A stretch of 35,140 nt of DNA from Seison nebaliae (lineage: Eukaryota): NCBI GenBank assembly GCA_023231475.1, contig JALJEE010002321.1, positions 1 to 35,140 of the forward strand, given 5' to 3'. The translations under genes were made by a program, and so were the position numbers. Shown in pieces: positions 1,450-31,939 of the stretch; position 1 is the stretch's first letter; each line of letters begins with the position of its first letter. Below the pieces are notes generated by a model that was given only the letters and a program-made list of their open reading frames with translations, did not search any database and was not told where the DNA came from.

Positions 1450-1598
1450 CTTGTCTTTGTCAACAACTTGTCTGCAAGTTACATTCTGTAACTTAACTAG
1501 AACTTTGCATAGTTTGTAGGATCATTACGCGTCGTATAAGTTACTTCCTGTAACTTAACTAGAACTTTGCATACATTGTGAGTTTGTAGGATCATTAC
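1444..1598. repeat. Local direct repeats at the env truncation point
   Basis: CAACAACTTGTCT at 1444-1456 and 1461-1473. A 53/61-bp unit at 1476-1528 and 1538-1598, each copy starting with the hairpin AAGTTAC-N5-GTAACTT. Confidence 0.9.
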
Positions 1599-2251: not shown

Positions 2252-2700
2252 ATGTTGATTCCCATTACTGGCGCGTGTCTTTACAATTATTTCAAGTCTA
2301 AAAATGAAAAAGAAAAAAGAGAGCGACAAAAGAAACGAGCCAGTAATCGAGTTGTCGTTAATGATGAACCACTACGATATCAGTTGAAGAAGGATCGGAG
2401 ATGCTGGAAGAATTGCAACGGAGTTTATATCAAACAAAATGTCTATTATGGTGAAAACGAATTGAATGAGATGGAGGAGGAAGATGAGGAAGAAGATCTG
2501 ATTTGGGGAATCCAGGAGATCTATATGATGATCGTACTAGTGTTCATCGTTCTCATGTTCCTCTTTGTTTTTTATCATCGTTGCTTATCACCCGTTACGA
2601 ACCATATGTGGAACCATTTCTCCAAATGGTTTCCATTCTTCTTTTCATTTAATTGTTTAAATATCTTTTCCTTATATATTATAGGAGGTCGGAATTGTGA
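2252..2700 (+). CDS. Small orphan single-pass membrane protein (tentative model 2252-2628, 2685-2700)
   Basis: ATG at 2252, then a basic stretch, an acidic stretch and a strong TM segment (IYMMIVLVFIVLMFLFVFY). A T-rich 56-nt GTTTCC...TATAG segment (2629-2684) looks like an intron; splicing gives a ...KWRSEL* end. Unspliced, the frame runs to 2728. No recognisable family. Confidence 0.5.
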
Positions 2701-3420
2701 AAGTCATCAAAACATTAATGTCGAATAATTTGAGTCGTTTTTCATTCGTTTGTATTTCAATCATTCTGTATTTCATTTCATCATTTTATAAAACTAAATA
2801 ATTGATTTGAATAAACTTTATCTTTTCTCATTCACAATCAGTTCTTTCTTTTATGAAAGGATATATAGAATAATTGTATATATATATCAATTGAATTGGA
2901 ATCAATCGAAGAAGGAGATTTTACTATATTTCATTTTTATTTTTTGAAATCTCAATCTGGACAATTGAATATATTTTGATATTAAAAAATTAGTTGTTAT
3001 AAAATTCATGAATTATTTTAGTTAGACATTTAATTGACTTATTATTATTAAATATTATATATTCATTAAATTTATTGAGAATATTAAATGAAGTATCCTT
3101 CTTTTATACTTAGCCAATATTTTAAATCAACTTTCTCCCAATTTCCGATGTACTATATGGAGAAATATATTAATGCTAAAAAAGGAAAATATGTTGGAAA
3201 AAATTTGAAAAAAATGTACGAGTAATAATTGGTATATTACTCAGTTTTTTAATTTGAAAAGAAGCATTTCTTTTTCCCACATCAGTTAGTTATCGATGCT
3301 TTCTTTATTAATGTTATCATCATATTGTTTAGCATTTACTTTAATTGATGATTATTAACGTTAATAATTTCGTTCTTCTTTTTTTCATGATTATCGAATA
3401 GAGTGAAAGATTGAGTGACG

Positions 3421-4374
3421 ATGTCGGGAGATAAATTGTCAAATTATCAGATTGGTAAATATTTAGGAAGTGGACGATTTGGAACAGTTTTTTTAGCGAG
3501 AACGGCATGCAAACCTCATTTCGTTGTAGGATTAAAAGTTTTGGAGAAAGAACAGGTTGCACTTTACAAGATGGAGAGACGAGTGCAGAAAGAGATTGAA
3601 ATAATGTGTCATACAAATAGTCATCCAAATGTTCTCAAATTGTTCTCTTGGTTTTTTGACGAGGAACGATTTTATTTAATCATCGAATATGCTTTCCATG
3701 GAGAGATGTTCAGTTTACTTCAAGATTTAGAACATTTTAATGATGATCGAGCCGCGACTTATATTTACCAGTTTTCAGATGGAATGAATTATCTTCATGA
3801 ACGTGACGTTATTCATCGAGATATCAAACCGGAAAATTTACTTCTTGGATTATTTGGTGAAGTGAAAATTGCAGATTTCGGATGGAGTGCCCATTATACT
3901 GGACGTCCAAGGAAAACGTATTGTGGAACGCCAGAATATCTCGCACCGGAAATCGTCGAATCAACTGGTCATTCGAAAGAAGTAGATTTATGGTGCGCTG
4001 GAATCCTTCTCTTTGAAATGTTGACAGGATATACTCCTTTCCACAACAGCGACAATGAACAACAGAGGAATAGAATTCGTGCTTTAGATTATTCCTTCCC
4101 TGCTCATATGGATCGAGGAGCTAGGAATATCATTCAAAACTTATTACAACTGGAAAAGAAACGAATGAATTGGAGACAAATTATGGAACATGAATGGACA
4201 CACAATTTTAGAAAAGTCGATCCTCCTTATTTCGTTGAACATCCTACCCCAGAGAAAAAATATATGGAAATCGAATATTTTGAAACATTTAAGAAAGATT
4301 ATCGTTCGGATAAAATGAAGGAGAATCAAAAAACTATCAGAATGGGTCCAAGATTAGACGTAATTGAAGAATGA
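3421..4374 (+). CDS. Aurora-family Ser/Thr kinase, divergent, intronless CDS
   Basis: LGSGRFGTV, KEIEI, HPNVLKL, VIHRDIKPENLLLG, KIADFGWS (Aurora signature), CGTPEYLAPE and VDLWCAG. First in-frame ATG is at 3421. Confidence 0.9.
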   Translation: MSGDKLSNYQIGKYLGSGRFGTVFLARTACKPHFVVGLKVLEKEQVALYKMERRVQKEIEIMCHTNSHPNVLKLFSWFFDEERFYLIIEYAFHGEMFSLLQDLEHFNDDRAATYIYQFSDGMNYLHERDVIHRDIKPENLLLGLFGEVKIADFGWSAHYTGRPRKTYCGTPEYLAPEIVESTGHSKEVDLWCAGILLFEMLTGYTPFHNSDNEQQRNRIRALDYSFPAHMDRGARNIIQNLLQLEKKRMNWRQIMEHEWTHNFRKVDPPYFVEHPTPEKKYMEIEYFETFKKDYRSDKMKENQKTIRMGPRLDVIEE

Positions 4375-5277
4375 ATCATCACAACTTCCTATCTCAATTC
4401 TTTTTATCTACAATATTATCCCTATTATTATTCGATTCAAGTGAAAATTAATTTTTATTATTTAGTTCAATTTCAAATAAATTTCATTGTAAATATGAAT
4501 AATAAAATTGACGTTGTTTCATATTTACCTCATTTGTAACCAATTACACTTATTAAACTTATTTTCATTTAAATTTTAATGGAAATTGGTTGAAATAATT
4601 ATTTTATTTTTTTCAAATATTCATCGATTATTAGTTGGATTGAATATAATCATTCCAACATCACCTTGTAGATATCGTTCATTATGATATATGTAATTTA
4701 AATAGTATTTCCTCTAATGAATCTAAACAAGTAAATTTTCTATTTTTCTTCCTAATATCTCTTCATTGGATATTCATCATTGAAAAATTAAATGAAGATA
4801 TCAGCAAATATCAGATATTTGAATAATTTATATTATGAAAAAATTTTATTCGTTTATAACATTCTCAATTCATAAAAGGTCTGAATGAAATAAAAGTCCT
4901 CAAAATTCGAATAAAGGTCTATAACCGAATGAATAACCTTATAATATGGAGTGTTCATAATTATCAAAAAAAGAAGTAGAATAATTTGGTGGATGTTCTC
5001 TATTATTTTACAAGTTGATTGTTAGATAGTTTTAAGAAAAGTTAGGCTCAATTTGATTGTGGTATGAGGAGAGTGTGTAATATTGGTTAAAAGAAATGAC
5101 GAAAAAAATATTTTAATATATTTCTCATTTTAGAAAGAAGCTTAATAGATCAAACAGTTCAATTGGTTGTGTCATTTTTAAAGAGTATGATGAAAGTATT
5201 TGATGGATGATGAATTGATTAAATTTAAATTTCTTTTTTTAAATTGACAGATCTATTCAGTTTATCTTCAACTAATT

Positions 5278-6105
5278 ATGGCGACATTGAGAAGAGTGGT
5301 GAACAGAATGACTGTGTCAGTTGTCAGTGCTGCCTCCGATAATTATATGTATATTGTCCGAACACCGGAAACAGTCGTTGTCATCGATGTGACAGATGGT
5401 GAGAAGATGGTGAAGGAATTGGAGAGTCAGCAAGTGGAACCGATGGCATGTTTGACTACACATCATCATCCTGATCATTGTGAAGGAAATGGTGCGTTGT
5501 TCGCTCGTTTTCCCAAATGTGTCTTCTATGGTGGTGATGAGCGGATAGAAGGCGTGCAGAAAATCATGAAACCGAATGAACATTTACAACTGAAAGATCA
5601 GACATATCTCTCTTTGCATACTCCATGTCACACTCATGGTCATATGTGTTACTATATCGAGGAGAAACGGTACGGTAATCAAACTCCTCAGCGTGCCGTC
5701 TTCACTGGTGACACTTTATTTATGGGCGGATGTGGAAAATTTTTCGAAGGTGATGCAAAACAAATGGTATCTGCAATGCGCATTCTCTCACAATTGCCCA
5801 ATGACACCGAAGTTTTTTGTGGACATGAGTATACGAAAACGAATTTGCTTTTTGCCATTAAATCCGTAGGTATTGACAAAGAGAAAATGGAATCGACATA
5901 CAAAAGAATTTGTCCATTATTGAAAGAGAAGAAACCTTCCATACCATCCACCATTCAATTAGAGAAAGATATTAATGTATTCATGAAATCAGCAACATCT
6001 CCAGATTTTCTTAAACAAATAAATTCTAATTTCTCTTTGCAATTATTAGACGAAGTTGAATTGATGCATTGGCTGCGACAAAGGAAGGACACTTTTACCG
6101 TATAG
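5278..6105 (+). CDS. HAGH: Hydroxyacylglutathione hydrolase (glyoxalase II), intronless CDS
   Basis: DNYMY, THHHPDH metal motif, HTPCHTHGH, FTGDTLFMGGCGKFFEG, VFCGHEYT and PSIPSTIQLEK. Confidence 0.93.
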   Translation: MATLRRVVNRMTVSVVSAASDNYMYIVRTPETVVVIDVTDGEKMVKELESQQVEPMACLTTHHHPDHCEGNGALFARFPKCVFYGGDERIEGVQKIMKPNEHLQLKDQTYLSLHTPCHTHGHMCYYIEEKRYGNQTPQRAVFTGDTLFMGGCGKFFEGDAKQMVSAMRILSQLPNDTEVFCGHEYTKTNLLFAIKSVGIDKEKMESTYKRICPLLKEKKPSIPSTIQLEKDINVFMKSATSPDFLKQINSNFSLQLLDEVELMHWLRQRKDTFTV

Positions 6106-6542
6106 TCTGACATGATCAATATTCATGTTTTACAAATTTTCTAGACAGTTCTTTATCATCAAATTATTTAATATTAAATTATTTAAAAATAAACGATATT
6201 TTTCCAGTTTTCCATTTTAACCCATTTTTCATTTGGATCGATTGAATTATTATTATTAACTATTCAAAATTCTCAACAATATTCCTGAAGAATATTTTAT
6301 CGAAATTTTACTGTTTCAGTTTTAAATTTCCAATTTATAATTTCGAAGAAATATAAAATGGATTTATATCTTTAAAAGAACAAAGAAAGTTGCAATTAAA
6401 GAAAAATATTTCTCTTTTATTCGTGAAATTGTTATCGAAACTTTTTTTTAATTCTCAATCGGTTCATTTGACGAAAATATTCTATCATTTCTTCCAATCA
6501 TCATTTTACTCCTCCAAATCGTTGTCGAAATAAGAACGGAAT

Positions 6543-8258
6543 TTACAGATCATTCTCAATCTTCTCCAATAAATAATCACATTCAATGAATCCTTCTTGT
6601 TCAATTTCGTTAATAAATAATTTGATGTAATGTTTCCGTTCTCTATTGGCGATGAGAAGGAAGCCGATATTGGCAGCAAATGGACAATATCGATCGATAT
6701 GAAGATGCTTCTTCGACCATTTCATTAATTTGGAGAAACATAGAAATGAGAATAATGGTAATATCGTTTCCAAATGACCAAATCGTAGAAAGAGAATTCT
6801 TTTCGATTGATAATCGTATGAACATCTTCGAATGAATCGTTCGATATCTTTCAGTAGTGGACGTCGAGCTCGTCTCAAATGATTGGTCGGGTAGAATTTT
6901 GTATGAAAATTCTAATGGAAACGAATTTTTAAGAATGATCGACAAAGGAAAATAGAAACTTTAAAATCGATGAATTCATTCATAGCCTTCCTTAGTCGTT
7001 GGTCGAATATGTTGAACATGGCAGGCACATCCGACGACTCATTAATGGAGTTGGGGAAATTCATCGAATTGGCTATGTAATACCCAAGGAATTTGAAGAG
7101 AACAAGAATGTCTGATAAATTCAAATGTTTCTTCTCAACCATTTGATTACAATTCTTCCTTTTGATGAAAGTGTGTCCACAATTCATATTGTTGTACATA
7201 TTCCTCCTACTAAATGATTGTTGTATTTCGATGTTTGACTGTCGTCGTATTAGAGTAAAGAACGTGGAATTATCTCTGTCAATTAATCGAATACAGATTG
7301 GATTGATACGTTCCTTATTCTTCTGAAAGCAATGGAAGTCTTCTAGAAACATATTTGTTAATTCTTTAAAATCCACCGGGATCGATCGGGCTGTAAGCTT
7401 AGAAAAAGTTTCATCATTTCCATAAAATTGGATGATGTTCTGATGAAATTCGATTGTGTAAGTGTTGACGATAAATGAATCGTTGGAAGAACTTCTCTGT
7501 CTCCATATGAATTTCTTCGGTTTTTTCCTTCCCGTCGAATATGATCGATGTCGACCTGGTTTTATAGGTAAATTATCATATGATGGTTCATTGTTCATAT
7601 GATTGATGATATCGGTGAACCAAAAATTATTATTCAGTTTCATTAATTCGAATTTATTCAGATATTGCTCGTAGAAGACGGATGAGTAATAATTTGAAAG
7701 ATGGTTCTCTAGCAAAATAGATTTGTTGATTTGGAGATGCTTAATCGAATGAACGAAACATAAAATCGAATCGTCGATATCGATATTGTTGATGTGACAA
7801 TTGATTTGTTGTAAGAAGGCGAGTGCTGATTGCAATGTTCGTTGTCGTGTACTACAAACAATTTCAATGAACTGATTCACACTAAATAAATTGGGTAAAC
7901 GTTTTTGATAACGCTTCGCTATCTCCTTCATATTCTTCTCACCGAAATTAGTCAATTTCCTATTGAGATCATTCTCCTGAAACTTTTCATGAATCATTTG
8001 AACGAACTGATGGATTGGCGTGCCACTGCGGAACTCATTCAGAGGGAATTTCAAATTTAAATCTTTCAAGTCTGAAATATGAGGTTGTCTAGCACCATGT
8101 CGTAGCAAGAGATAAAATCCACGAATCTCATAGCCTTTCGGGATGTTTATCTCTCGTTCTCTCAAAAACAATTCGGTAGAATCGAAAGTATCATCGTAAC
8201 TGGTTTTGGAAGCAAAGAGCCGATTTCGTTCCGTACTGCTATAAGCCTGGTCGCCCAT
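6543..8258 (-). CDS. MINPP1: MINPP1-like histidine acid phosphatase (exons 8258-6960, 6911-6543)
   Basis: FASKTSY, RHGARQP catalytic motif, RQRTLQSA, FGHLET (cf. FGHAET) and PFAANIGFLL. A 48-nt intron at 6959-6912 (GTTTCT...ATTAG) joins the two ORFs in frame. The N-terminus may be incomplete. Confidence 0.82.
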
Positions 8259-9911: not shown

Positions 9912-10470
9912 TCAATGTGGTTTGCGATAATGTTCTCTTGCTGTATAAGTTTGGGCCATTTTGATCTTAACTATTGTAAATTGCTTCTTGATTGATTGTA
10001 TAAAACTGAAAATATCCGGATTGTTTTCTCCAAATGTTGATGCGAATCCGTTATGATTTGCCTCCGATAAGTTGTTGGTGAGGGGTAGATTGGAGATCAT
10101 TCTTTCATAGTTACTCCATAGCTTTATGTTATATCTACTCTGAATATCGGAACCTATGTAAGTTTTACCAAAATATGAGAATGATGGTTTCAATATTTCG
10201 GGAATCATGTATTTCGCGTTTTCGAAAACTTCCAATACATTCTTCCGGAGGTATAAAACTCAAATTTCCCAGAAAATTTACCCACTCTTGTGCTTCATTG
10301 ATGTTCTGTTTATAGCTTACTATTAATCCATTTCTTTGAATAAATTTTATAATATTCTATTTCAAGTGGAAATAACAACCGTGGACCGATGTGTTTTGGA
10401 ATACTTTGGTTGCTGCATTAATTGACGCCATTTCAAAATCAAAGGTAATTGTATGTGGGTTCATTTTCAT
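9912..10470 (-). pseudogene. MULE (Mutator-like) transposase pseudogene, C-terminal half
   Basis: Minus strand reads TFDFEMASINAATKVF...HGCYFHLK* (stop at 10357-10359). After a frameshift near 10240 it reads WSNYER...PLTNNLSEANHNGF...PDIFSFI. These match the DFE, CxFH and RTNNxxE motifs of MULE transposases. 9350-9900 is probably the non-coding end of the element. Confidence 0.88.
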
Positions 10471-11492
10471 TGAATTTTTAAAAAAATTGAATAAAGTCTT
10501 AACTATTATTTGCATTAAACGAATTTATAAATCGTTCTGATTATGATGAATTTCGTTCAAAATTCTACTTTCGTATGTTCCATTTGATCAATTCTTCCAA
10601 ATGTATTTCGTAGTTCTACGGACTCTTCTATCAACATGCTTGTGACTATTGAGGTGTGGATTGTTTTTGTTTATTGTGATGATTTAGTTCGTCATTGTTA
10701 GACATATTATAATAACTTTTCATGTTTCATTGTCCTTCTAACTACAGATTCAGACATTGCTGTTAAATGAATAAGTTTCATCTAGCCTAATAACTGACAT
10801 AATAATAAGGAATAATTATTTTTGACCGAATCCTTGATTTTATATAGTGAGTTAGTGAAAGTTGGTTATTTTCTTAAAATGTGAAATAAAAACTATGAAA
10901 TAGAAATGTGCTAATCAGAAATCATCCCAAAAGTATAAAAATTTACGAAGTTTATGATTTTTTCAAGTTTATAGTTTGAAATTTTTTGCTGTTACTATGA
11001 CCGAATAATATTTTTGAAATTTGAATAAAGCTTAAAATTTAAATGATTAAATTAGAAGATAATAAATTTCAATTTAAATTAATAAATTAAGTTTCTTAAA
11101 TTTATTATAAAACGTAATTAATGTGCTGGTTGGTTCAACGAGAATAGATGACAAATATAAATGAAATCATGACTGTAACATGATTAAAGAAATATTTTCA
11201 TCAATCGTTGAAATGAGGCTAAGAATTTCAATTGGGAATTTTGAATGATATCGAGGAATTTGGAAGGATGATAACTGTTTTAAAAAAACTGGAAGAAATG
11301 TGAACTGCTGTTATAAGCGAAACGAATTATAATCAAGTAATTTCTTTTTCTAAATCATCTTGAATGTATGTGGTTTTTGATTGTTCATTTTTCCTTCTAA
11401 TCTAATTGTAAGTTGGATGAGATAAATTTATTTATTTTCTTTTCAATAACAAGATCCTTTTTTATTTTTACCACTTCCAAAGAGGTGCAGAT

Positions 11493-12403
11493 ATGTCGAA
11501 CCTTGCGAACAAGATTAAATTTGCATCGACTCGTCTCTTTTCTACTTCATCATCAGCACTTGCCGGTTTAGAGACGACGGTCAATGAAGAAACTGTTCAA
11601 CAAATGTTAAAAGATAATCCTCGCCTTAAATTACATCCGCGTATTGGTCGACGTGAAATTGTTGGGTTCGGAATTAATGGAGAACCGACTTATTTCGATT
11701 GGGCCTGTCTCCCATGTCCCGCTATTCGCTACAAGGAAGAAGACGCAAAACTTGTCGAATTGAGAAAGAAGGAGAAAGGCGATTGGAGCAATTTGTCAAT
11801 CGAAGAGAAACGTGAATTATATCGTGCCAGTTTCCGATTGACATTGGCGGAAGTTGAAGCACCAACAGGAGAATGGAAAGCAATTGTTGGACTTGTGGGA
11901 ATTTTCTTGTCGTTAACATTTTGGATGTATTATGGAATCCGAAAATCTGGTTATTATTCATCTTAAGCTAATTGAAAATTAATCAAGTGAATTCCCATTT
12001 TTCATTTATATCAAATTTCATCTTTTCTTCTTCATTTCTCCAACTCTTGGAAATATTTCATCAAATTATTCTATTTATAGTATCATCCAAATTCTCTTTA
12101 TCAATTCAAATAGTTTTTAACATTCATTCAATCTTTTCCACCATTTTCTATATATCTCATTATTCATATTTTTTCCAATATCGCGTGCACTATTTGACAC
12201 AATATGTAATTGGACATCAAAACAAAATTTTTAGAAGAAAATTAATAATTTCCTTTTTCCTTCTAGTTTATCCACCATTACCACATACGTTATCGCCGGA
12301 ATATCGTGAACAAACAATGGAACGTATGATTCGTCAACGAGTTGCACCATTGACTGGTCCAGGCTGGCAATGGGACTACGAGAAGGGAGACTGGAAACAA
12401 TAG
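11493..12403 (+). CDS. COX4: Cytochrome c oxidase subunit 4, mitochondrial (exons 11493-11949, 12267-12403; 197 aa)
   Basis: Transit-peptide-like N-terminus, GRREIVGFG, PAIRYKE, KEKGDWSNLSIEEKRELYRASF, TGEWK, a TM helix and C-terminal WDYEKGDWK. One 317-nt intron at 11950-12266 (GTTATT...TCTAG). Confidence 0.95.
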
Positions 12404-13716
12404 AGAATTTTGGGAGAATTGAAAATTGAATATATTTTTATTCATTTTTAAACTATTTCTTAGTGGAATGATAACTCTAATAAAACGAAAGTTATGGCAT
12501 AGTAATAATATAAGATTGTTGTTGTTGTTATTGTCGTTGTTTTTGTTGTTGATGATGACAGTATTAAAACTTTCAATGTTAATTTCCTTCATTTTACCGG
12601 TTTCTCACAAACATATTTCCCACCCAGACAAAAACACAAAAGTCCTTCTTCTCCCCCAATTTCTTTAGCAGGAACGACCAATCCGTGATTGCATTCGTTT
12701 CTATTTCGAAATGAAGAAGAATAAATTTAGATGGAAAAATTTCGTGATTAATATGAGAATCATGAAGATGAGAACTTGATTTGTCTTAAAAGAATAAATA
12801 GAATAATAAGGAAATAAATGAATTTCATGATAATTGTGAAATTGTTTTATGTAAGTTCAATATAACAATAATTTCTTTCCTGCTAATTGTGAATTGTTTT
12901 GGAGGTAGGAGAGTTTCATTCAACAGTATTCGATCGATATCCTTGAAAAAACATTTCCCCAAATATTATTTACTATTAATCGATTTACTTTTGTGAGATT
13001 TTAAGAATGATTTGTAACATGTTGTGCAATATGTTGTCGAGCAAAAAGTTCAAGTAATTCCTGTCCACTTGTATAACGATCTATATGTCTTTGTTGTAAA
13101 CGAAGGTAAACGAGGTGGTATACTGTTAAGATGAAGAAAAAATAATAAGTCCTTTTTCACTTCATCTTCAACTCAAGAGAATTGTGTAACAGCTTATTTT
13201 GTAGATGAGTGTGAATTGGAAACGGGAAAAAAGTTTCTTCTAAAAATTTAATTGGGCGTCAGTTCGTTATTGTCTCAATGTTTACCTTTTTATAGTGTGC
13301 AGGTTGGTGAAGTGAAGGGAAAAGGTAGTCGATTTTTATGAATATTTGACAATTATGCAAAAAGAAGTTCCAGATACAACACGAAATTTCGATTTTCCTT
13401 TAAAAATAGACCGAATGTCCAACATAAAAATTTCTTCCGCTCACTTTCCCTACCGGCAGGACGACGACGACATAGATATTATTAGTTTCTTATTAAACTT
13501 CTCTCATGTACAGTATATGATGTGTGAAGGCAAGGTAAGTCCGAATAAATTGGATTCGACAACAAATACTTTGATATAGGAAGGAATTGTAATTTAAAAG
13601 AAAAACACGTTTCCATAATGACAAATGACGTTACTATAGTATCAAACGAAATTGGACACAGGATAATATTCAGAATGATTAAAGTTAATTTATTTTAAAT
13701 CAAACATTATTTTAAT

Positions 13717-16700
13717 CTACATCGAAAGTTTTATTGAACCACCACTTTTCTCCATATTATTCGTTGTCAGCAATTGTTGACCACGTTCTTTATTCTCATT
13801 CTCTTCATCTCGCATTCGGGCGAACATCTTTGTCAACTTTATGTGAATCAGATGAGCTTCCGACACATTCACTAATTGAGATTCTTCTTTTTCTATTTCT
13901 TTCTTCTTCTTCGTCTCGTCATCATCTACCAATGGAAGGTAATTCTTCAATAACTTCTCCTCCAACTCCTTCCCATGTTTCAATTGATTAATCTCATTCT
14001 GTTGATGATTCATTAGCATAGGGAATTGAGATAACAATCGTCTCCATATTCTCCCATTACCACTTCTTATCAATGGAATACGCAAATTAATCACATTCAC
14101 CGACTTGTTATATTTACACCAATTTTGGAGACTTTCTATCGTAAATTTCTGTCTCACCGAATTTAAATGAATTCGAATAAACCAAAATAAGAAAACTTCA
14201 ATTAAATTACCTCGAATATGTTTCTTCTGAACTTCACTGATATCACGACGACGTAATTCACTTCCTCGTGATGGATCGAACGGTAATTGATAATACAACT
14301 TCTTCCATGTTAATCCATCGATCTCTTTCGCTATAATCAATATGGCTTGACCGATTTCATCTGAAAAATTAAAATTAAAATTTCTTCTTTAAATTCTCAT
14401 TCAAACCGGAACGTTCGTTTATCGGAATAGTATTGAGTCGATTAGTTTGATTTATTAATGGATATCGGAAGAAGATTTTACTAATCGATGATTCACATTG
14501 TTTGAGATGAATTATCTTCTTCAATTTCTCGATACTGTTCTCCGTGTGACGTATGTCTGCTTCGATATTGAAACGATCTTGTCGAATAGCTCGACTTCCA
14601 TATAAATAGTCTTTCCAAATCACAAACAATTTCTTTATTTCATTCTCATACGATAGGAAGCGATTGTATATTCTCGTTAAATCTCTCTCCTTCTCATCGA
14701 ACTTATTGATTTCTTTCTGTACCATTTCCATTTCTCGAACTAAAAAAAATGAAGAATTTGATTATTTCTCTTATTAAATTAAATGGTTAAACTGATAGAA
14801 TCTCTCGTTTTGTTAGTTGAAGCATCATATAAATTATTACAATCCATTTTTTGTTTATTTAAAATATTATATTTTATTCGTTTCAAATATTTATTCTGTT
14901 TCTTATCAATAATTTCATTCTTCATCGCATTGAAATCATATCGATATTCTTCCAATTTCCCATCTCCAATGTTAGTCAATGCGAATGCATGTTTCAGAAA
15001 TCTTCTCAATTCTTCTTCGATCGTTTTCAATCGAGCTTGAGTTGTTCGTCGAATATAATCCAATTTCTGTTCTTTCTCAATTAATTGACTAACATTTTCT
15101 TTCTAAAAAAAAAATTGTTTATTCCAAAAAACTGACAAAATGGAAAACTTGAATTTTTAATTTTTTTTCTAAATTCAGAATATCAGTTCGAATGTGATAA
15201 ACGTAATTCTTATCCATATCAATCCAATCAGTGAGAAGTTGAATAGATTTCCTAAGAATGGCAATACTTTCCGGTATGAGGAAGAGTATTGGCCATGAAA
15301 ATGCATCAGCTCTTAAAGCAATATATTTGACAGTTGAAGAGAATTTCAATTTGTATCGTTCATCATTCTCATTCGACAATTTATTCTCTTTCTCTAAAAT
15401 CTCTTCTCGTTCGGTTGAACGAAGACCATCACGTGGTTTTGGAATATCATTCAAATCATCATAGAAAGTAAAGACTGGAGTCTCCGAATTAGAAGTGTCA
15501 TTAAATTTTAATTTTATATATTGCAACTCTTCCAATAATCGACCACTCTCTCGATTAATATGATCTTTCTTCGCTTCGTACACTTTGGGAGCTCCCATCA
15601 TTTCATTCATCCATTTCGCTTCTCTATCATTCAATTTCCTATTTTCAGCCCAACTGATGCCAGTCTTCTTTGGTGATCGAGTTGACATAGAAATAATATC
15701 ATCGTTTGCCTTCTCTCGTAAGAGATGAAGTAAATTCAATCGATTCGGATAATCACATTCTTGAATGAGTTCGAGAAAAATTTCTTGATATTCATAAAAC
15801 TCTTCGATCATTTGTCGATTACGATTATCTTCCCCCGACGAATAATTCGATTGTTGCATAAACTTCTTTTGTGTCTTCATTTCCATGTTTTCATATTGAT
15901 TGAAATATGATTGTAGATAAAATAACATAATCTCGATAACTGGTTGCAATTCTTCAGATAACGGTAAAAATAATGATGTTAAACATTCATTACATAATGA
16001 CAACATTTGTTCGAGGAGTTCCGCAGCGAATATTTGTTGATTAGTGAACATTGAAGACAATTGTTTCTTTCGTTTACTTTCTGCGTCGAAATCTTCCGTC
16101 GAATTTTCCACTTCGAGATCGAAAGTATTTCCATGAATATTGGTAGGATGAGTGATGTAAGATATCATATCGTAAGCAATTCGACTAGTACGAACTTCTT
16201 TGATTTGGAAGATGTCTTTGAGTGGAGATAACGCTTGAATCCATTGGCGATAGATATCGGTAGCGATGGAAGTTTCAATAGATGGTAATCGAATGAAATT
16301 AGAAGTCGATTCTCGAATTGATGGAATTCTCGATTCTAAATTCTCCACTAGAATATTATTGATGATTGATTGATCGTTCGTCTCGAATTTGGAGCTGAGT
16401 TGAGTGAATGCATCGTATGCATTCTCATAAGAACGATTGATGAGTTCGTTTATGATATAATTGTTAATTTCACTTGTATTGAAATAGAAATTGTTGAGGT
16501 CGTTCTCTGTTTCGAGTTTGATCAATTTCGTTTTCTTTATATTTCTACCTTGCTCATAACTGAATAATTGGAGATGTTTCAACAAGAATTCGATGGAACT
16601 AAAAGAGGAGGATGAGAGAATCAATAAATTGAGAACTTCTTGTTTGAGAGCGGCCGAATATTCTAAGACATCCGGCGTTAACTTCACTCGATTGACAATG

Positions 16701-17599
16701 GAAACACTTTTCGATTTAGTCAAATGAGAATGTCCTTCATTCTTCCGTCTCCTCCTACTAATCTCTTGTTTCGATGGATTAATTGTGACATTCGTTTGCC
16801 GTGTAATTGACGGGAGAATAGGCGACGTACATTTCGCTATCGGGATCGTGGCTAATGAGTCCCAGAGTTTGAAGTCAGCATAATTTGGTTTATTTTTCAA
16901 TGACGCATGATTCTGATATTGTCCTCCCTCCATTTCATCCATCGACGAATATTTTTCGTAAATAGAAGAAACTGTTCGCTTTGTTTCCGCCGTTCTCAAT
17001 TTCATATTCTCCCGAGTAATTTCAACATCTTTCAAACTTTCTTCCTCATCATCATCAACATCATCATCTTCCAATTCATCACCGTTATCTTCTAATAAAT
17101 TCCGCAATTTCTCCGAATTTTGCATTCGTTTCTGCAATTGCTCCCGAATTCGATCACGCTGATTTCTTTCTCTTTGTAATTGACTGCGCGAATTTTTTAT
17201 GGCTCTCGAAACCACCGTTCCCGATTTCTTATTATGCTCAAATGCTAAAGAGTCGACAATACGATGACTACTCAGTTTAGTACCATCACCATAATTCATG
17301 GAATTGGAAAGATTGTTACTAATTTCGTTCAAGTTATTCTTATTCTTTCTTCGTCTCTGTCCATCATGTCCATTCGTGTCTGGACTATCTACCAGATTGG
17401 TGATGGTTCCATTCAACAATAATCGATAAGCATAAAACTTATGTTCAATTTTATTGAGTCGATACTGAAACTCTTCCAATTTGACTTCGACACAAGAATA
17501 GAATTGAGACAGATTCTTAGGTGGAATCTGATAATTGATGAGAGATTTCAATAAATTCTCATTCTCATCATGTTTAGTTAGAGCAAAATTCAATGCCAT
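13717..17599 (-). CDS. Large coiled-coil protein with a C-terminal death-fold-like domain (exons 17599-15149, 15102-14793, 14739-14407, 14360-14197, 14148-13717; 1229 aa)
   Basis: Four ORFs join in frame through 46-53-nt GTT...AG introns. E/K/Q-rich heptad regions are present. The segment IAKEIDGLTWKKLYYQLPF...DISEVQKK...ESLQNWCK...VINLRIPL fits a death-domain pattern once the 14149-14196 intron is removed. Confidence 0.75.
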
Positions 17600-21484: not shown

Positions 21485-23573
21485 ATGCAATTAACGATGA
21501 TATTGGTCATCGCTTTCCTTGCATCGATTACTTCGTTATTATTGACACTTTTTAGTATCATTTCCAATTCATGGGTGAATATTGTTGAGATTACTCGAAT
21601 ACAAATGAAGACTCGTGCTCCTTTGCGATTAGTTCATTCATTCTCCTTTTTTACCGTTCTATATTTTTGTAGCGTCCCACATCAATGCCAGATGTTCTAG
21701 CCTATAATCGTCAAGTTGGAAATAATGAATCGAAGATATGGAAGAATCTCATATCGACACATTTGAGACCGATCTGTCGAAACAATTGTTCATACAAATC
21801 ATTCGAATATACGAGTGAGGATCGTATTCAAAAATTCCGAGAAGCTTTTAACATCACAAATACACCCATTTCATTGAGATTCACTCGACAAATCAAATAT
21901 GGAGCTAATCAAGTGAATGATCTTACAACATACCGTATGAAAAAGTTTCAGTTTGCAACAACTACTCAAGTTTCTCCATCCGCTTCACCTACAATAACTG
22001 GGAAGAATATGAACAACAAGAAATTTCAATTATCCAGTCGACAACTATTATTTCGAAGAAAACAATTTGAGAAATTTAGGAAACGAAAAAAGAAGAAGAT
22101 GAAACATCGACTTCCACAATATATCAAAATGGAAGTAAGTGCTGATTTGGGATTGTGGTATATCTGCATCTATCAAACGAATGGGAAACACACATGTCAA
22201 GCGAATAAGAATTATAATATCGTTTCAGGACGAGTGGCTGATTCGAGTGTTATCTCATCTGTAGCTCGTTAATAATTTCTATATATAATATTTTATATTC
22301 CATTTAATCTCTCAATTACAGATTCATTAAAACGAGCAGCATTTAGTATTTGCGTTGCATTTATTGTTCACCTTGGGGCCTTCATCCTCTTCATCTACAC
22401 ATTGAACGATACAAGACTTAACCTTCAGAAATCTCAGATGATGAATGAAATTGATAAGATTGACAAGTCGTTCAATGAAACCATATCAAAAGATTCTCAA
22501 ACCACCATCATGAATTCAACCGCATATTCCATCAGATCTGAACCTGATGCAAACGCAAAAATAGATTGTCATGATGAGAGTGTACCTAATGACAGTTTCC
22601 GAATTAAACCAGAATTACCTCCAAGATTAGTTCGATTGAAAATTACTTCATTCAAATTCGATTCCGATACTTTGTCCGATGGAAGTTCAACAACTCCTTC
22701 CCAAAGAGTAAAAGTGAAAAAAGTTCAAACGATCAATCACAAAACATCACTATGTGTAAACACCAATTTGGCATCGGCACATTCTACTTCATATGATATG
22801 ATTAATAATTATCAATCAGTTCTTCTCCAAACAAAACTAGTTTGAATTTAAATTCTATCGATTTTAATTAAATATTTTTATCATCAGAATTATAGTCCAG
22901 TAAAATTAGGAAATTATGGAAGTTCATGTTTGTCAGAAATGAATTTTCCTATGAATATCAGAAGAAGTAGCAAACGATCAAATACATCGAAAACATTCTC
23001 CAATTTATTAAAGAATAAAGACGATTGTGTTTCGATGAATGAAATTAATCGAATTCCTACCAGTCGTGCTAAGTTGAGTGATAAGAATTTGAAAATTTTG
23101 GTAACTCAAAAAATTCCAAGACTTCCATCACCAACCAACGATTTGACAACAAAATGGAAATCAACTAACGATAAACGGATGGCAATCGTTGACGTTTCCA
23201 CGAAAGAGATCTGCTACAAAATGTATAGACAAAATCAAATGTATACTGTCTCAATTACATTGATTACAGCGAAGCATCATTCGTTAATCGCTGCAACACT
23301 TCTTCTAACGACATCATGTTAAATGGATTTGTTTAATGAAAATAATATTTTAAATTCATTTTAAATTTAGGTTTACTACAAACTCTGGCATTGTTATTTT
23401 CGGTGTTAAGTATTTCCGATGAAAAGTTCGTTAGGAATGCAATCAACTTTAAATTCGGTTATGGAAATGGTTTTTGGTGTTGTTATGTGGCGTTGTTGTT
23501 TCTTGCAATTAATCTCATTGTGACTACTTACCTTGCTCTATACAATACGGTGAAGAAGAATATAAAGACATAA
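21485..23573 (+). CDS. Claudin/PMP22-EMP-like tetraspan protein with greatly expanded loops (exons 21485-21631, 21673-22267, 22322-22839, 22888-23317, 23371-23573; 630 aa)
   Basis: TM1 followed by SNSWV, then the GLWYIC...HTC signature, TM2 (AAFSICVAFIVHLGAFILFIY), TM3 (AATLLLTTSCLLQTLALLFSV) and YGNGFW plus TM4. Five ORF pieces join in frame by four 41-54-nt GTT...AG introns. Confidence 0.78.
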
Positions 23574-23744
23574 AGATAAATTGTCTAATTTCATTAAACA
23601 AATAAATAAATAAATGTGCTGTTCAATAAATTGGAAGATCACTGTCGGTGTAAATTAAACAATAATACAAACACTAAATATTCTCCATTCGGATGTAATA
23701 ATTTCGATTTCTATGTCGTTTACCTAATTCAACAATTGTCAAAA

Positions 23745-23820
23745 AGAAGAGGAGAAGGAAGAGGAGAAGGAGAAGGAGAAGGAGAAGCAGAAGGAGAAGG
23801 AGAAGGAAAAGGAGAAGAGG
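23745..23820. repeat. Polypurine (GAAGGA)n-type microsatellite
   Basis: Roughly 75 nt of almost pure A/G hexamer repeats between two convergent genes. Confidence 0.9.
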
Positions 23821-23876
23821 TTGTTAGATGAGAAGAAAAGACTAAAAGATTTTTCCAATGAAGAAAGTTTGGAAGT

Positions 23877-25103: not shown

Positions 25104-25920
25104 TCAAATCTAAATTCACTTCAATGAAAATTAAAGTGTTTTCATTAACATAAAATTTCAAAAAAAAAATTCAAATTTTCTTTCGCCGAATACGAAAGAA
25201 AAAGTGAATTTCTTAACAAAAAATTATCCAAACTAAATTTTTCGACTTTTCTTCCTCCTCTTCTTCCTTTTATCAATATCTCGAAAAAAATTTGTTATGT
25301 TATTCGGATTCTTTTTCTTCGCATATACATGCGCGTGTCATGTATAAGAAATGTACACACTTCATTCGGTTTGTGTCGACTGAATGGAAATTGTTCGATT
25401 AGCAATTATTTCATAATTATAATGCGACGCATTATGAAGTGCATATGTGTCGCTCTAATCGGAAAACAAAAAAATTATGTGACTATGTCGATTTCTCACG
25501 AAGAAGAATTTGTGAGAGATATCTCGACATTTGACGACGTGATGAGAGAAGAGGAATGGAATCTTACGGAGAGAAGATTCTCAGCTTAAATTTAGTAATT
25601 CTAATTAAACGACGACACAACATGTAAAGTAAGGTTGGAAGATCGAGATAATTATAACATGTTCAATAAAAAGGGAAATGGAAGATTAAAAATATAGCTT
25701 AAAAAATTACTCATGAAATGGAATATTCTTCTTCCTAATTCAAAATTCAATTTCTAGTACTAAATGTGCAATAAATTTTTGTTTTTATGAATATCTATCA
25801 CCTACTCTCGTGTATGGACAGATTTGGGATTGCAGACGAAATTCATTCCACGAAAGAGGAAGAGACCTCACGACTAGAACACATATGTTACTTAGGCATG
25901 TACATATACATCCACTCCAC

Positions 25921-25946
25921 ATATATATATATATATATATATATAT
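25921..25946. repeat. (AT)n microsatellite
   Basis: Uninterrupted AT dinucleotide run. Confidence 0.9.
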
Positions 25947-28048
25947 CATGTGTCTATGCATTAAGTAATAAAATGTTATTTATTTATTCCTTTCATAACA
26001 TTTCTCTTTTGTAACTGAAAATAAAAGATAGAACGAATAATTATGTAATAATTTATTGCTCTAACAATTTATTAATCATTACTTGTCTTTATTGGAATAT
26101 TGTTTTTCTTTTTAATGTTATCTGTCATTGGATGGTAATATCATCCGCATTTCTACGGTCAATTACACGTTCTCCTTTTAACTCATCCACTTCGTTTGGA
26201 TGAACACTTTTAATCGGTGACAATCGTCTGCAATGTCCATTTAGAGGAATGTATTGTTTCTTCTTTTTTTTAGTTACTTCCTTCTTCAATCAATTTAACG
26301 AGAATTAATTCAACATCAACATAAAGTTAAAGGTGTATCTCGAAATGATTGTTACACGTATGTAGATCGGAGTGTGGAGTGTACCGTCTCTTTGTACATG
26401 TGTGTTCGTGTAGACATGCGTACTCGGACATCGTGTACAGAAGAATTCATTTGTATATTTGTGATAATAATTTTAAAATAATAATAAAGTTATATTCCAA
26501 TCATCATCCTATTTCATCACATTAAATTCTGTTATTTCTCTCTTTCTTTTCGACCTTTTCGAAATAAATCTCGTTTATTCTCATCGATTTCCTCAATATT
26601 CATGTAAAAATTTGCATCAACATATTCGTCAGCATCCCTCTCCTTCTCCCTCTCTCTCCCCCCTCCACATTCATTTACTTTCTTCTTCTTCTTCTTCTTC
26701 TTCCCTAAATTATTGGTTCGAACTTCATTTCTTAATTTCATCTATATTCTAGAACGTTTAATTTTGAAAATGTCCTCTCCTCTCCCTCTCATCAAATCCT
26801 CTTCATTTCAAATCTTTCTTCTCTCTCGTTTGAACATCGATTGGAATAGAATTAGAATTTAACGAAGTTCCATATCGATTCCATCCGCTCAATCTTCATT
26901 CATCCTGATGATGATGGAGAGAGAAGATTTTTATGTAAATGAATTAATTGTTTATAAAATTTCAGTTGAAATTTGAAAATAAACAAACAAATTTCTTTTG
27001 ATCGTCCCATCATGTAGATCGGTCATTAATTTTCTTCGTGTTCGTGACATTAAATTTCTGGTATTGAATCCAATTAGGATGGTAGATGGTAAATGATTCA
27101 TTCGTTGAAGAATTGTGAATAGAATACTAGGAGGAAGGCGATTCTTCTCCGATTGTAATTCATGTGTAAATTAGATATAATTAGATAAATATAATCGACT
27201 GATTATTTAGTTTATTGGACGGATATGTTTTGATGGCATCGTCATGAGATTATGATTGGGAGGAAAAGGAGGAGGAGGAGGAATGAATAAGATTTAATCT
27301 CAAATCCTTCTTATCAATACCAAGTAAATCAGTAAATATTGTAATTTTTGTTTTCGTATAATTTCAGTTGCTTTCAATTCGATTATATTCTCCTCAACAT
27401 ATTGTTGTATATATATTGTTCAATTGCTCATCGACCTTTTATGCATAGAATTACGTCCTAATTTTTACTATATATAGTTTGTTTAGATTTCTTTCTAATT
27501 TCTGTTCTTCTAATGACTTTTTAATGTTTCCACCAATCTCTCCTTTTCCAATTAATCCAATTATAACCTCACATGACAAACACACATCGACATTAAGAGT
27601 GAGACATTTATTTTTAAATTAAATCTCAAAAAATTATTTACATTTGCTGAAAAAAAAGTTCGAATATATACATTCTCATTCGATATTCACTCGCTCTTAT
27701 TAAACACCGATAATTATATGATAATATTCATCAACGATAATTTGTAAACGATTTCTCTTCATCAAAATTATTCTCTTCACCAATCACCAAAAAAAGACTT
27801 TCTTTCAGAGAAGATTTTCGGAACAATCATCAACATTATCATCGATTCATCACCACTCAATATTCTCAACTATTATTCGGTGAAACAGAATTACATACAA
27901 GAAATCGTTATTTGAACGTCGATTGACAAAGGATCATTGTTTCCATCAATAATCTCTCAATTCTGACAATTGAAATTTTTATTCCGATAATTCCAAATAA
28001 AAGTTTAGAAGAAAGACAGTTTAGAAACAAAAGAATTATTCCAACTAT

Positions 28049-29386
28049 ATGGGTGCGTTTCTCGATAAGCCAATAGTCGATAAGGTGAATGCATCCGGTT
28101 CTGGAAATGGACTTAGATTTGCAGTCGCTGCCATGCAAGGATGGCGCATCGAAATGGAAGATGCACACTTCTCCCAAATCGGATTAAAAGATTTACCCAA
28201 CTGGTCATTATTCGCCGTGTTCGATGGACATGCAGGTAGTGGAGTCTCCACTTTTGCTTCCGCTCACATCGAAGAAGAAATATTGAATCATAAACAATTC
28301 CTGCCATGTGTGACGGAATTGGAGAGGAAAATGGCATCAGATGGGAAAGCTGATGTCAAATCGGAAATCTCCTGTTTAACTGATGTGTTCCGACAAGTCT
28401 TTCTTGATATCGATGTGCGTATCAAGAATTTGCCTGAAGTCCAAAATGGTAATGATCGTTCCGGTTCCACAGCTGTCGTAGCTGTTATTGGACCGTCACA
28501 TATATTCCTAGTGAATTGTGGAGATTCGCGTGGAATCATCGTTTCGGATAATCAAATCGTTTGTAAAACTGAAGATCACAAACCTCATCTTCCGTCCGAA
28601 CATGAACGTATTACTCGTGCTGGTGGTAGTGTGATGTTACAACGAGTTAATGGTTCATTGGCCGTTTCGAGAGCGTTGGGTGATTTCGAATACAAATCCA
28701 ATAATCGTATGGCTGCCACTGAACAATTGGTGTCTCCTCAGCCCGATATTTACGTACATGAACGAAATGCGGTTGATGAATATATGGTGTTGGCATGTGA
28801 TGGTATTTGGGATGTGATGACAAGTGATGAAGCTAGGCAATATCTTAATCATCGTTTACAAAGAATTAATGAATATCCAAATCTGGTCAATGAAACTTTA
28901 GATACATGTCTCTACAAAGTTCAAATATTTTATTTTTTTTTTAAATTTAATTATTAATTTTAATTCAATCTATGTTTAGGGAAGTCGGGATAATATGAGT
29001 GTTATCTTTGTGGCATTCGATGGAATAACGAAAGTAGACGCCGAACAAGTAGAACGAGAGAAAGTTCTGGATAATTTGATTGAAAGAAGAATTAGAGGTT
29101 CCGTTTCATTAGTGAATTATTGGGAATTCTATTAATTGTTAATGGACATTAAAGATTATCTAACCGAACCAAATCAAGTAGAATTAGCCTACATACTTCA
29201 CACACTATCCAGTGACAATGAATTATTTTCGTACTTGCCGCCCGTGGGAGGAATTCTGACGAAGTTAACATTTTAAACTTTTCTTTCATTCAATCTATTC
29301 AATCTATTCTTTCAACTTTCCCGCATATCAGGAGGAATGTTGTTGAAGAATCATTAAAAAGACTAAGTCCACATGTGAGCGATTAA
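28049..29386 (+). CDS. PPM1B: Protein phosphatase 2C, PPM1A/PPM1B type (exons 28049-28918, 28980-29097, 29155-29263, 29332-29386; 383 aa)
   Basis: MGAFLDKP, MQGWRIEMEDAH, FAVFDGHAG, NCGDSR, DHKP, RVNGSLAVSRALGDFEYK and LACDGIWDV. Splicing restores CLYK|GSRDNMS and LPPVGGILTK|RNVVEE. A versus B paralogue naming is not meaningful outside vertebrates. Confidence 0.95.
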
Positions 29387-30124
29387 ATAAAGATGTATTT
29401 GAAAAACACACAACTCCGATTTCTCTTATTCTTCTTTTGTACTGATTCATTTGACTGGCAACAAGATGTCGAAAATTAATTTTTCCTGATTTCATTTCGT
29501 CAATCAGATGACGTTGTTTTCTCCCAGTATTCTATATTATTTATTTTATTTTATACATGAAACGTTCGAAAGGACACTTGGTCAGCTGATTGACAAAGAA
29601 AAACACGATGAAACACATTTATCTTCTCCATTTGCTCTGATTTCGATACCAATAACAATTCGGAAGATGATGTTTACATATCCATCCTCATTCCCTCGTA
29701 TATCTTACAACACAACAGTTTATGTATATAATACACATAATTAATACGGTTGAAATTATTGCCAATTAGATATAAACAAAGAACTATACAAATATATTTA
29801 TTTGAAAACGATTCTTATCGAATCGATCGATTCATTCATTATCGATCATTTAATTACTACAACATTTATTATTATTATTTTTTTATTATTATGTTAATTC
29901 TTCAATTTCTATCAAATTATATAATTTATTATACATATTTTGATTTAAGTTTAATTATTCTACTTGTTAGAGAGATTTGTTGCAATTAATTATAAATCAA
30001 TTTATCGATATTTGAAGTAAAATTAAATTTTGATGCACTACACTAAAAGTTCTCAAAATTCAATATTATTTATTTATAAAACAATTTAATGATATTATAT
30101 TCATTTCATAATTTTCGTTTATTA

Positions 30125-31939
30125 TTAAACTTTGCTAATCTTTTCACTTTCCTCACTCGACCAACAACATTCCTTCACCCACAATCCACAAATGCAAGTC
30201 ATCTTACAAATCCAATAATTTTCGTCATTATATCAAAAACGAACAATTACTAACCATCAGTAGGAATAAACATGAGATTGCAAATGTCGATTTTGGAAAT
30301 GAGACGTATCGTACCATGATGCCACCACATAACGGTCCTAGTGTTAATCTGTAGGAATTGAGTATAAAATAAAAAATAAATTCGAAGGTAACCCAAGTGC
30401 AATGGCCGTCATATGGATACCAGATAATCGTGTGTAAAAATCTTCATCATCGGCTAGAATATATTTTTCGTTTTTGATTTTCAATATTTGGACAAAAGAT
30501 GGTGTATAGATGAAACTGAGGGCTAAACCCATCAACGACGAACTGACATATATCCAATATTTCGATCTAATATATTTCATATTAGACTACAAATTCATTT
30601 AATGGTACGAACAATTTAATATGTAGAATAGGTGCTGGTCCAATGATGGAGAAAGCGGCAGAGAAAAATAACAATCCTGCCATTATAAACGGTAATGTGA
30701 ATTGTTTCTTTTTGTCCATAAAGAAACCAATAGGAATTGTAAGGACTGTATAGGATAGGGCGCTTACGGCAAAGCCAATTCCAAAAACCTTTTCCACGTT
30801 TTTAATTTTTGTCTATATAACAGAACAATATGTTTAAGGGGAATGATACGACGAAATAAAACTTTTTTTAAATGTAGAAGATATGTGGAATCGATGGTAT
30901 TAATGGCGAACATTGATAAGAAGATAGTTATGAGAACAATAAGTACATTAATGTTCCGTATAATTTTCGAAATTCTTGGTGTCTTTCCACATGAGATCTT
31001 TGAAACTTCACGACGCACAGACTTGTAATTCTTATGATTATTAAATGCGACTGAAATTTTTTGAAATAATAATGAGATTATAACTTAGGAAGATGTGAAT
31101 AATGCCAACTTTGAACCAAAAGAAATATTTGGAGAAGTGCTCCAAATATTATTTCTGAAAGCCCGACTGGCCAATATCGAGAACTATAACTAAGTCCTTT
31201 CAACAGATTCGTATTAAAATACGAACCAATTGCTAATCCAATACCGGAGGAGAATTCTAAAGATGACTAATTTTGAGAATTAATAAAATTCACGTTTGAA
31301 GTAAGTGGCTAACTGAAAGAGAGCCTAATTGATCAAAATATTGGTTGGTAATATAAGATTTTATAACGGTCCAAAATATACCATTGCCAATTCCTCTCAA
31401 GGTGGCTATGAGTATTGTTACGGACATGAAAGTCCAATATTCACTGATTGCAGATGAATAACTAGTAGAATCAAAGATGGTTATTCGGGTTGTTAAAACG
31501 AAAAAAAACCAAAATATAAAAGTGGCTATTCCATGGACATATAAGCCGATTGGTGAGGAGTGTTGTGTATTGAAAAATTTATTCTGTTAAATTTGAACAA
31601 ATAACTGATGTAGGGAATTAGGAAGAAGATGATTAAAGTGTTTAACATATTTGGAGATGGTTATTGAAGATATTGCCAAGAACACACTACATGTTGTTTC
31701 AATAGTTCCAATTGATATTTCTGCTCCTTTCTTCTCTTTAACCTTTTCACATATCAAGAGAATTATTAGAATTCAATAACGAAGATAATTTTTGATTTAA
31801 CGATTAATGGTAATGTGTTTACATAGACTGAGATGGTGAATGAGTTAATGAATGCGCAAAGAATAATAATAAATTTTACACAAACACCTATAGCAAATTC
31901 GGGTGTTAGTTTACTTTCCTTTTTATCTTTCTTCCCCAT
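30125..31939 (-). CDS. MFS transporter, SLC18B1-like (exons 31939-31802, 31742-31647, 31583-31510, 31461-31314, 31266-31110, 31050-30863, 30812-30613, 30566-30393, 30348-30255, 30202-30125; 448 aa)
   Basis: Ten hydrophobic exons join into one stop-free frame through nine 44-63-nt GTT...AG introns. Motifs include LRGIG, LEFSSGIGLAIG, IGFFMDK, IIGPAPIL, LSGIHMTAIALG and LGPLCGG. The start codon and intron 5 boundaries are less certain. Confidence 0.82.

Follow-up and report, generated by a model that had tools for sequence, protein, structure and literature searches.

Every checkable intron in a contig of Seison nebaliae starts with GTT, supporting a changed 5′ splice-site code

The closest precedent for the splice sites described here is Entamoeba, whose introns start with GUUUGU(U) and whose U1 small nuclear RNA (snRNA) carries the arm AACAAAC (bioRxiv 10.1101/2022.06.08.495308). 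We analyzed the introns of a 35,140-nucleotide (nt) contig (JALJEE010002321.1; hereafter the window) from Seison nebaliae, a minute marine relative of rotifers; they share with those of Entamoeba GT-AG termini and a near-universal U at the third intron position (+3). In contrast to Entamoeba, which is intron-poor and whose strict donor motif of six to seven bases (88-90% GUUUGU) forms full pairing with U1 (bioRxiv 10.1101/2022.06.08.495308), Seison is an animal with plentiful introns (up to nine per gene), and its 5′ splice sites (donors) fix three bases.

Three other systems are relevant. In plants and animals, U2-type donors fall into two classes, AG//GU, associated with U5, and //GURAG, associated with U6 (bioRxiv 10.1101/2022.04.05.487178). 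Seison shares with them the GU..AG termini and a residual G at +5 but belongs to neither class, as AG precedes the cut in 1 of 26 donors and GURAG is found in none. Human donors that pair with U1 in a shifted register, or through U-pseudouridine pairs, show that GUU-starting donors exist, as in Seison (PMC4856993); however, they form a small minority and keep strong U1 pairing, whereas G+6 occurs in only 2 of 26 Seison donors. Finally, Cyanidioschyzon merolae provides a precedent for a spliceosome without U1, with a change in the U6 ACAGA box that matches its donor (cited in PMC10581693 and bioRxiv 2022.06.08.495308), although it has very few introns and Seison has many, with weak donors. Our literature search, which left most subscription papers outside its coverage, found no description of donor motifs in Seison, rotifers or acanthocephalans.

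All 26 checkable introns in the window start with GTT. They are distributed over eight transcription units on both strands, and comprise 18 introns defined by transcripts and eight pinned by homology or annotation (Table 1). PPM1 exon 1 and one exon of a major facilitator superfamily (MFS) gene match the NCBI Seison nebaliae proteins SNEBB_009922 and SNEBB_009923 at 100%. The transcript evidence comes from published transcript-to-genome alignments (PMC8351084, supplement 2, rows 13993-14010), in which 14 listed rows match window coordinates and contain at least 19 distinct gaps. At least 18 of these gaps have a single GT..AG placement, and 18 of 18 start with GTT. One gap, at 23789, was dropped as an intron, being a 6-nt repeat-length difference in a GAAGGA repeat (23750-23815) where the assembly and two transcripts differ by one unit.

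A sequence-only reading of the window had listed 23 GTT donors. All 23 hexamers are present, and 22 are real donors by transcripts, homology or gene model; the remaining one, at 2629, is unsupported and was not counted. Fourteen of them, in the histidine-phosphatase (MINPP1-like), 1229-amino-acid (aa) and MFS genes, coincide with transcript gaps to the base. The transcripts also define four introns beyond that list, again all GTT and outside long reading frames. As these lie in a 5′ untranslated region (UTR) or in a transcript with no open reading frame (ORF) above 55 aa, the reading frame could not have guided their choice.

The eight introns pinned by other means gave the same answer. For PPM1, we scored all GT/GC..AG pairs on ten non-Seison proteins, with no weight on +3; the three GTT donors were the top result and agree with the NCBI protein. 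The COX4 gene is colinear with bovine COX4: residue 149 in exon 1 corresponds to residue 93 of 1occ_D, the valine split by the intron aligns to residue 103, the residue count between them leaves no gap, and the Pfam positions are 94/93. The four donors of a membrane-protein gene rest on an open 630-aa frame identical to a database protein (P0176), which is a gene model and not RNA.

Could base composition produce this pattern? The window is AT-rich (GC about 31%), and the sequence-only reading had argued that AT richness would make GTA just as likely as GTT. This argument fails, since T follows 39% of window GTs and GTA accounts for 24%; still, 18 of 18 GTT has p = 4e-8 at the background of 0.39. 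Inside introns, T follows 21 of 40 GTs (52%), and at that background the value is about 1e-5. For the four additional introns alone, p = 0.023 at 0.39 and 0.08 at 0.52. If the contig is typical, the 95% lower bound on the share of GTT donors is 0.85 from the 18 introns and 0.89 from all 26.

All our Seison sequence evidence comes from this one contig. The aligner GMAP presumably calls gaps shorter than 100 nt introns only if both splice sites score highly in its built-in model. In the published table, all 17 short transcript gaps on the window contig are written as deletions, and a hand count in two of the 400 table parts gave 81 distinct gaps of 41-99 nt on other contigs, 72 of them also written as deletions and 9 as introns. 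This is weak evidence for weak donors genome-wide, and leaves room for about one textbook-like site in ten. We consider it very probable that the GTT pattern holds across the genome.

As a control, we examined PPM1 in other animals. From 80 metagenome loci, the 13 with split matches gave 22 junction rows, of which 16 were kept, all at the same three positions and phases as in Seison and from eleven loci. The six dropped rows were the second of L058 and that of L061 (poor scores), L071 and the first of L077 (no candidate), and both of L075 (same as L069). At +3, 8 controls carry A, 7 carry T and 1 carries G. All seven T donors read AAG|GTTTGT, and five closely similar loci account for six of them; in L062, L063, L064, L065, L073 and L078, this sequence accounts for 7 of 10 PPM1 donors. 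Thus, some invertebrates commonly use a compensated GTT class, which argues against viewing +3 T as rare there. These loci place +3 T at the same PPM1 positions as Seison, but as one option (7 of 16) that is always preceded by AAG and accompanied by GT at +5/+6, whereas in Seison it is the sole option and is uncompensated. The difference in +3 T between Seison and the controls, which are not independent of each other, gave a Fisher p = 3e-5. G+5 occurs in 13 of 16 control donors versus 7 of 26 in Seison (Fisher p = 1e-3), and G-1 in 15 of 16 versus 6 of 26 (Fisher p = 1e-5). Before intron 1, the exon ends in the lysine codon AAG in 8 of 8 controls and in AAA in Seison. Since the three PPM1 introns of Seison share position and phase with those of other animals, they are at ancestral positions, which indicates that old introns were converted to GTT with loss of the compensating bases. 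Bdelloid introns presumably often start with GTT, and the onset of the change may predate Seison within the clade; the seven rotifer-like loci among the 80, which came from a metagenome scan for rotifer genomic DNA, contained no intron.

The rest of the Seison donor is relaxed too, a loss of the AG at -2/-1 and of the +4 to +6 consensus that goes beyond what the sequence-only reading had described. Position -1 is A in 13, G in 6, T in 5 and C in 2 donors, and +4 is A in 11, T in 9, C in 5 and G in 1. G+5 exceeds its intron background of 9% (p = 0.007), +6 is G in 2 and T in 7, and A+7 is found in 13 of 26 (p = 0.03). GTTTGT is absent from all 26 and GTTNNGT occurs once. None of the 26 has the extended 5′ motif of U12-type introns, each showing GTT followed by free sequence from +4 onward, and ZMAT5 is scored Missing in Seison in a published BUSCO table (PMC12256650). 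By their GT..AG termini, and by their removal from mature RNA in 18 of 18 transcript-defined cases, these are U2-type (major) introns, although they lack the consensus AG|GURAGU complementary to the U1 arm. The acceptors read TAG in 13, CAG in 8 and AAG in 5 (at 13152, 25119, 29154, 30203 and 31743) with no fixed pyrimidine tract, and the 3′ signal looks relaxed as well. Intron length is 39-75 nt in 24 of 26, the others being 115 and 317 nt. The sequence that follows a used GTT differs from that following 125 unused exonic GTTs (AT 0.75 versus 0.66, G 0.09 versus 0.18; p < 1e-4). The proposal had been that both the donor code and the splicing machinery changed: the change of code is supported, while a change of machinery is a sound inference from it.

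Next, we considered how far U1 could choose these donors, using the U1 arm as printed in PMC4856993. With the standard arm, used donors gave a mean predicted duplex of -1.5 kcal/mol, 606 unused GTs gave -1.8 and the 16 control donors -7.4. The area under the curve (AUC) separating used from unused GTs was 0.44, compared with 0.98 in the control animals. A greedy search for any 11-nt arm achieved no separation from 232 unused GTTs (leave-one-out percentile 0.53). Textbook sites are also passed over: the 9457 nt of transcript-covered exon contain nine unused GTA/GTG sites that agree with the textbook donor at 7 of 9 positions, compared with an average of 4.2 of 9 for the used donors. GTRAGT occurs in the window about as often as expected (17 versus 19). 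AGGTRAG occurs six times versus 2.8 expected, a number reached by 5 of 100 shuffles, and none of the six ends a recognized sense-strand exon. From the weak duplexes, the AUC values and the nine unused textbook sites, we infer that the choice of these donors does not depend on extended U1 pairing.

Consequently, our preferred reading, to which we assign a probability of roughly 45%, is that the donor code has been reduced to GUU, which is likely verified by the U6 base opposite +3 and positioned through intron length and AU content. The major spliceosome would no longer pick donors by extended U1 pairing. Instead, the acceptor, a narrow length window and AU-rich composition would place it across the intron (intron definition), and the nearest suitable GU would be accepted only if +3 is U, the three bases being checked at the catalytic center. 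The check at +3 could operate through a G44-U wobble or through a G44-to-A change in the U6 ACAGAG box, and U1, whether or not its sixth base is an A, may still be recruited while adding little sequence choice. An invariant +3 beside free neighbors behaves like +1 and +2, suggesting a check that lies beyond compensation and not one pair of a trade-off helix. In agreement with this, U6 G44 pairs with +3 in cryo-electron microscopy structures of the Bact complex (bioRxiv 2022.04.05.487178), the Entamoeba preprint states that GUUUGU could pair better with U6 ACAGA (bioRxiv 2022.06.08.495308), and the residual G+5 fits pairing with U6 C42. A stronger version, in which Seison gave up U1 base-pairing and possibly the small nuclear ribonucleoprotein (snRNP) of U1 altogether, with a rewritten U6 box checking for GUU and intron length serving as a ruler, seems unlikely to us. 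The donor motif of Cyanidioschyzon merolae is strict.

Several observations weigh against the U6 reading. The residual G+5 and A+7 fit U1 in its normal register as well as they fit U6, and mean matches to the U1 complement are 5.2 against a background of 4.4. The duplex energies come from a model without proteins or pseudouridines and not fixed to one register. Transcript decay could hide the use of strong unused sites, most of which would shift the frame. No branch-point motif emerged: of 11 patterns tried in the 26 introns, none exceeded shuffles at p < 0.05. GTT is not avoided in exons, where it makes up 38% of valine codons and has 223 sense sites in 14,184 nt, which counts against GTT as a sufficient signal; the choice of the right GTT is only partly accounted for. 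The U6 ACAGA box is invariant in 240 fungal species with a switched +4 preference (PMC10581693), so U6 changes are rare, and the sole known +3 U lineage changed U1, not U6 (bioRxiv 2022.06.08.495308). Both the U1 and the U6 readings are drawn from the donor sequences of a single contig.

The main rival is co-evolution of the Entamoeba type, in which a U1 with A at nucleotide 6 would form a three-pair seed with GUU, proteins of the U1C, LUC7 or TIA1 type would stabilize it on U-rich intron starts, and U1 would be the main +3 reader. We regard this as possible, though doubtful. It has a direct precedent in Entamoeba and Mastigamoeba (bioRxiv 2022.06.08.495308). An unchanged U1 would reward +3 A, which none of the 26 donors has, and the weak G+5 and A+7 fit the normal register. 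Placing A at nucleotide 6 raised the AUC from 0.44 to 0.60 (0.63 against unused GTTs) and the mean pairing of used donors from -1.5 to -2.7 kcal/mol. However, this is far weaker than the -6.0 kcal/mol that the same arm gives with the control donors, a U1 helix should let sites such as AG|GTAATT offset the +3 mismatch and none is used, and Entamoeba donors keep the full GUUUGU that no Seison donor has. Therefore, the U1 with A opposite +3 suggested by the sequence-only reading accounts for the fixed U but not for the choice among GTTs. If nucleotide 6 were the only change, the U1 arm would contain UACUAAC, presumably equivalent to the textbook branch-site motif that pairs with U2, which might make such a simple compensatory change costly. 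An Rfam scan of the window found no snRNA.

A change confined to proteins, with unchanged snRNAs and a PRP8 pocket, U1C, LUC7, SNRNP27, SF3B2 or a U5 protein that accepts only +3 U, appears improbable. In yeasts, switches at +4 track METTL16 and SNRNP27K and not snRNAs (PMC10581693). In the published BUSCO table, U5-40K (SNRNP40) and LSm2 are Missing in Seison and Complete in both acanthocephalans (PMC12256650, sheet rows 240 and 852), making them candidates for a lineage-specific spliceosome change or divergence; BUSCO absence can, however, be mere divergence. The same table scores PRP8, PRP6, SLU7, SF3A3, U2A′, SNRNP27 and SmD1/D2/G as Complete in Seison, which argues against outright loss of SNRNP27 or PRP8 as the cause, and our search of it returned no row for U1-specific proteins, U1C, LUC7 or METTL16. 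In addition, an unchanged U1 should have left G-1 and G+5 as in the controls, and both are nearly gone. A published supplement that lists 124 Seison RNA-binding proteins may be informative about LUC7/TIA1-type factors (bioRxiv 2024.08.22.609214).

It is very improbable that the pattern is local or a mere majority, with AT bias and small numbers inflating the common invertebrate GTT class and many GTA/GTG donors elsewhere in the genome. The GTTTGT donors among the controls, the single contig and the nine short gaps that GMAP reported as introns, which could be textbook sites, point in that direction. Against this stand the 26 of 26 in eight transcription units, including four introns outside the earlier list, the comparison with the controls, the AAG and GT that control GTT donors keep and Seison donors lack, and the short gaps on other contigs, mostly written as deletions as here. 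Even less credible is an unchanged U1 one base out of step, reading GUU-AAGU. Such registers are known in humans (PMC4856993), and A+4 (11 of 26) and A-1 (13 of 26) lean that way, but neither is significant (p = 0.15 and 0.12), and the reading is largely refuted by the near absence of the key G+6 and of GTTNNGT and by a match of 4.96 against a background of 4.72. Lastly, an origin from young copies of a mobile intron-generating element starting with GTT (introners), which the short and similar lengths might suggest, has almost nothing in its favor, as no repeat family links the introns and all three PPM1 introns, the gene for which positions were compared, are ancestral, which refutes it there.

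Table 1. Introns, the uncounted candidate and unused textbook-type donor sites in the window. Exon|intron boundaries are given in the sense orientation.
Feature	Positions	Strand	Basis
Histidine-phosphatase (MINPP1-like) gene, intron, 48 nt, AA|GTTTCT..TAG	6912..6959	-	transcript gap; open frame
COX4, intron, 317 nt, TG|GTTATT..TAG	11950..12266	+	bovine COX4 colinearity; Pfam positions
Transcript without long ORF, intron, 75 nt, AA|GTTCTC..TAG; newly added	12701..12775	-	transcript gap
Intron, 46 nt, AT|GTTACA..TAG; newly added	12973..13018	-	transcript gap
Intron, 39 nt (shortest), CT|GTTACA..AAG; newly added	13152..13190	-	transcript gap
1229-aa gene, intron, 48 nt, AA|GTTTTC..CAG	14149..14196	-	transcript gap
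Intron, 46 nt, CG|GTTTGA..CAG	14361..14406	-	transcript gap
Intron, 53 nt, CA|GTTTAA..TAG	14740..14792	-	transcript gap
Intron, 46 nt, AA|GTTTTC..TAG	15103..15148	-	transcript gap
630-aa membrane-protein gene, intron, 41 nt, TA|GTTCAT..TAG	21632..21672	+	open frame, P0176; no transcript row among those listed
Intron, 54 nt, TC|GTTAAT..CAG	22268..22321	+	open frame, P0176
Intron, 48 nt, TA|GTTTGA..CAG	22840..22887	+	open frame, P0176
Intron, 53 nt, AT|GTTAAA..TAG	23318..23370	+	open frame, P0176
Acyltransferase gene, 5′ UTR intron, 115 nt, TA|GTTTGG..AAG; newly added	25119..25233	-	split transcript rows
PPM1 intron 1, 61 nt, AA|GTTCAA..TAG, phase 0	28919..28979	+	homology junction search; NCBI protein; same position and phase in other animals
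PPM1 intron 2, 57 nt, AG|GTTCCG..AAG, phase 1	29098..29154	+	homology junction search; NCBI protein; ancestral position
PPM1 intron 3, 68 nt, AA|GTTAAC..CAG, phase 2	29264..29331	+	homology junction search; NCBI protein; ancestral position
MFS intron 9, 52 nt, TG|GTTAGT..AAG	30203..30254	-	transcript gap; NCBI protein P0121
MFS intron 8, 44 nt, GG|GTTACC..CAG	30349..30392	-	transcript gap; P0121
MFS intron 7, 46 nt, TT|GTTCGT..TAG	30567..30612	-	transcript gap; P0121
MFS intron 6, 50 nt, AA|GTTTTA..TAG	30813..30862	-	transcript gap; P0121
MFS intron 5, 59 nt, AA|GTTGGC..CAG	31051..31109	-	transcript gap; P0121
MFS intron 4, 47 nt, CA|GTTAGC..TAG	31267..31313	-	transcript gap; P0121
MFS intron 3, 48 nt, TG|GTTTTT..TAG	31462..31509	-	transcript gap; P0121
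MFS intron 2, 63 nt, AT|GTTAAA..CAG	31584..31646	-	transcript gap; P0121
MFS intron 1, 59 nt, TC|GTTAAA..AAG	31743..31801	-	transcript gap; P0121
Tentative intron, GTTTCC..TAG, intron-like in sequence, not counted	2629..2684	+	no listed transcript row, Pfam hit, homologue or frame constraint
Unused textbook-type site AG|GTAATT, 14 nt upstream of used donor 14196	14205..14210	-	inside transcript-covered exon; use would shift frame
Unused textbook-type site AA|GTAAGT in coding exon, sense strand	22135..22140	+	exon by open frame and P0176 only

Of the ten recognizable coding genes in the window, four lack coding introns. We scanned 108 of the 109 short frames between genes with Pfam, the remaining one being covered by a separate Pfam scan; this revealed a MULE transposase remnant only (10360-10524 and 9912-10259, both minus strand; E = 7.5e-6, just below the curated cut-off), and no overlooked gene with textbook donors. 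Convergent on COX4, a spliced transcript (12427-13450, minus strand) that contains three GTT introns and lacks any ORF above 55 aa is a candidate long non-coding RNA or 3′ extension of the upstream gene. The five-exon 1229-aa gene (13717-17599, minus strand) has no Pfam family over the cut-off and a coiled-coil-like middle, and its C-terminal stretch presumably resembles a death domain. A 422-aa open frame (253-1521, minus strand), with no Pfam family over the cut-off and a hydrophobic stretch near its end, presumably resembles a retroelement envelope-type gene. Its end is overlapped by a perfect 86-nt inverted repeat (209-294/383-468), possibly an assembly or rearrangement feature, and a 42-nt direct repeat with 62-nt spacing lies at 1476-1579.

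In animals, donors are generally taken to be recognized through U1 pairing to an AG|GURAGU-like site, and the Seison spliceosome likely finds intron starts in a way so far undescribed in this group. Its introns would be mis-scored by alignment and gene-finding programs trained on textbook donors; the published transcript table records most short gaps as deletions (PMC8351084). Beyond annotation, the Seison donors bear on the minimum donor information that an intron-rich genome can tolerate, and old introns that converged on a bare GUU provide a natural experiment for identifying the spliceosome component that reads +3.

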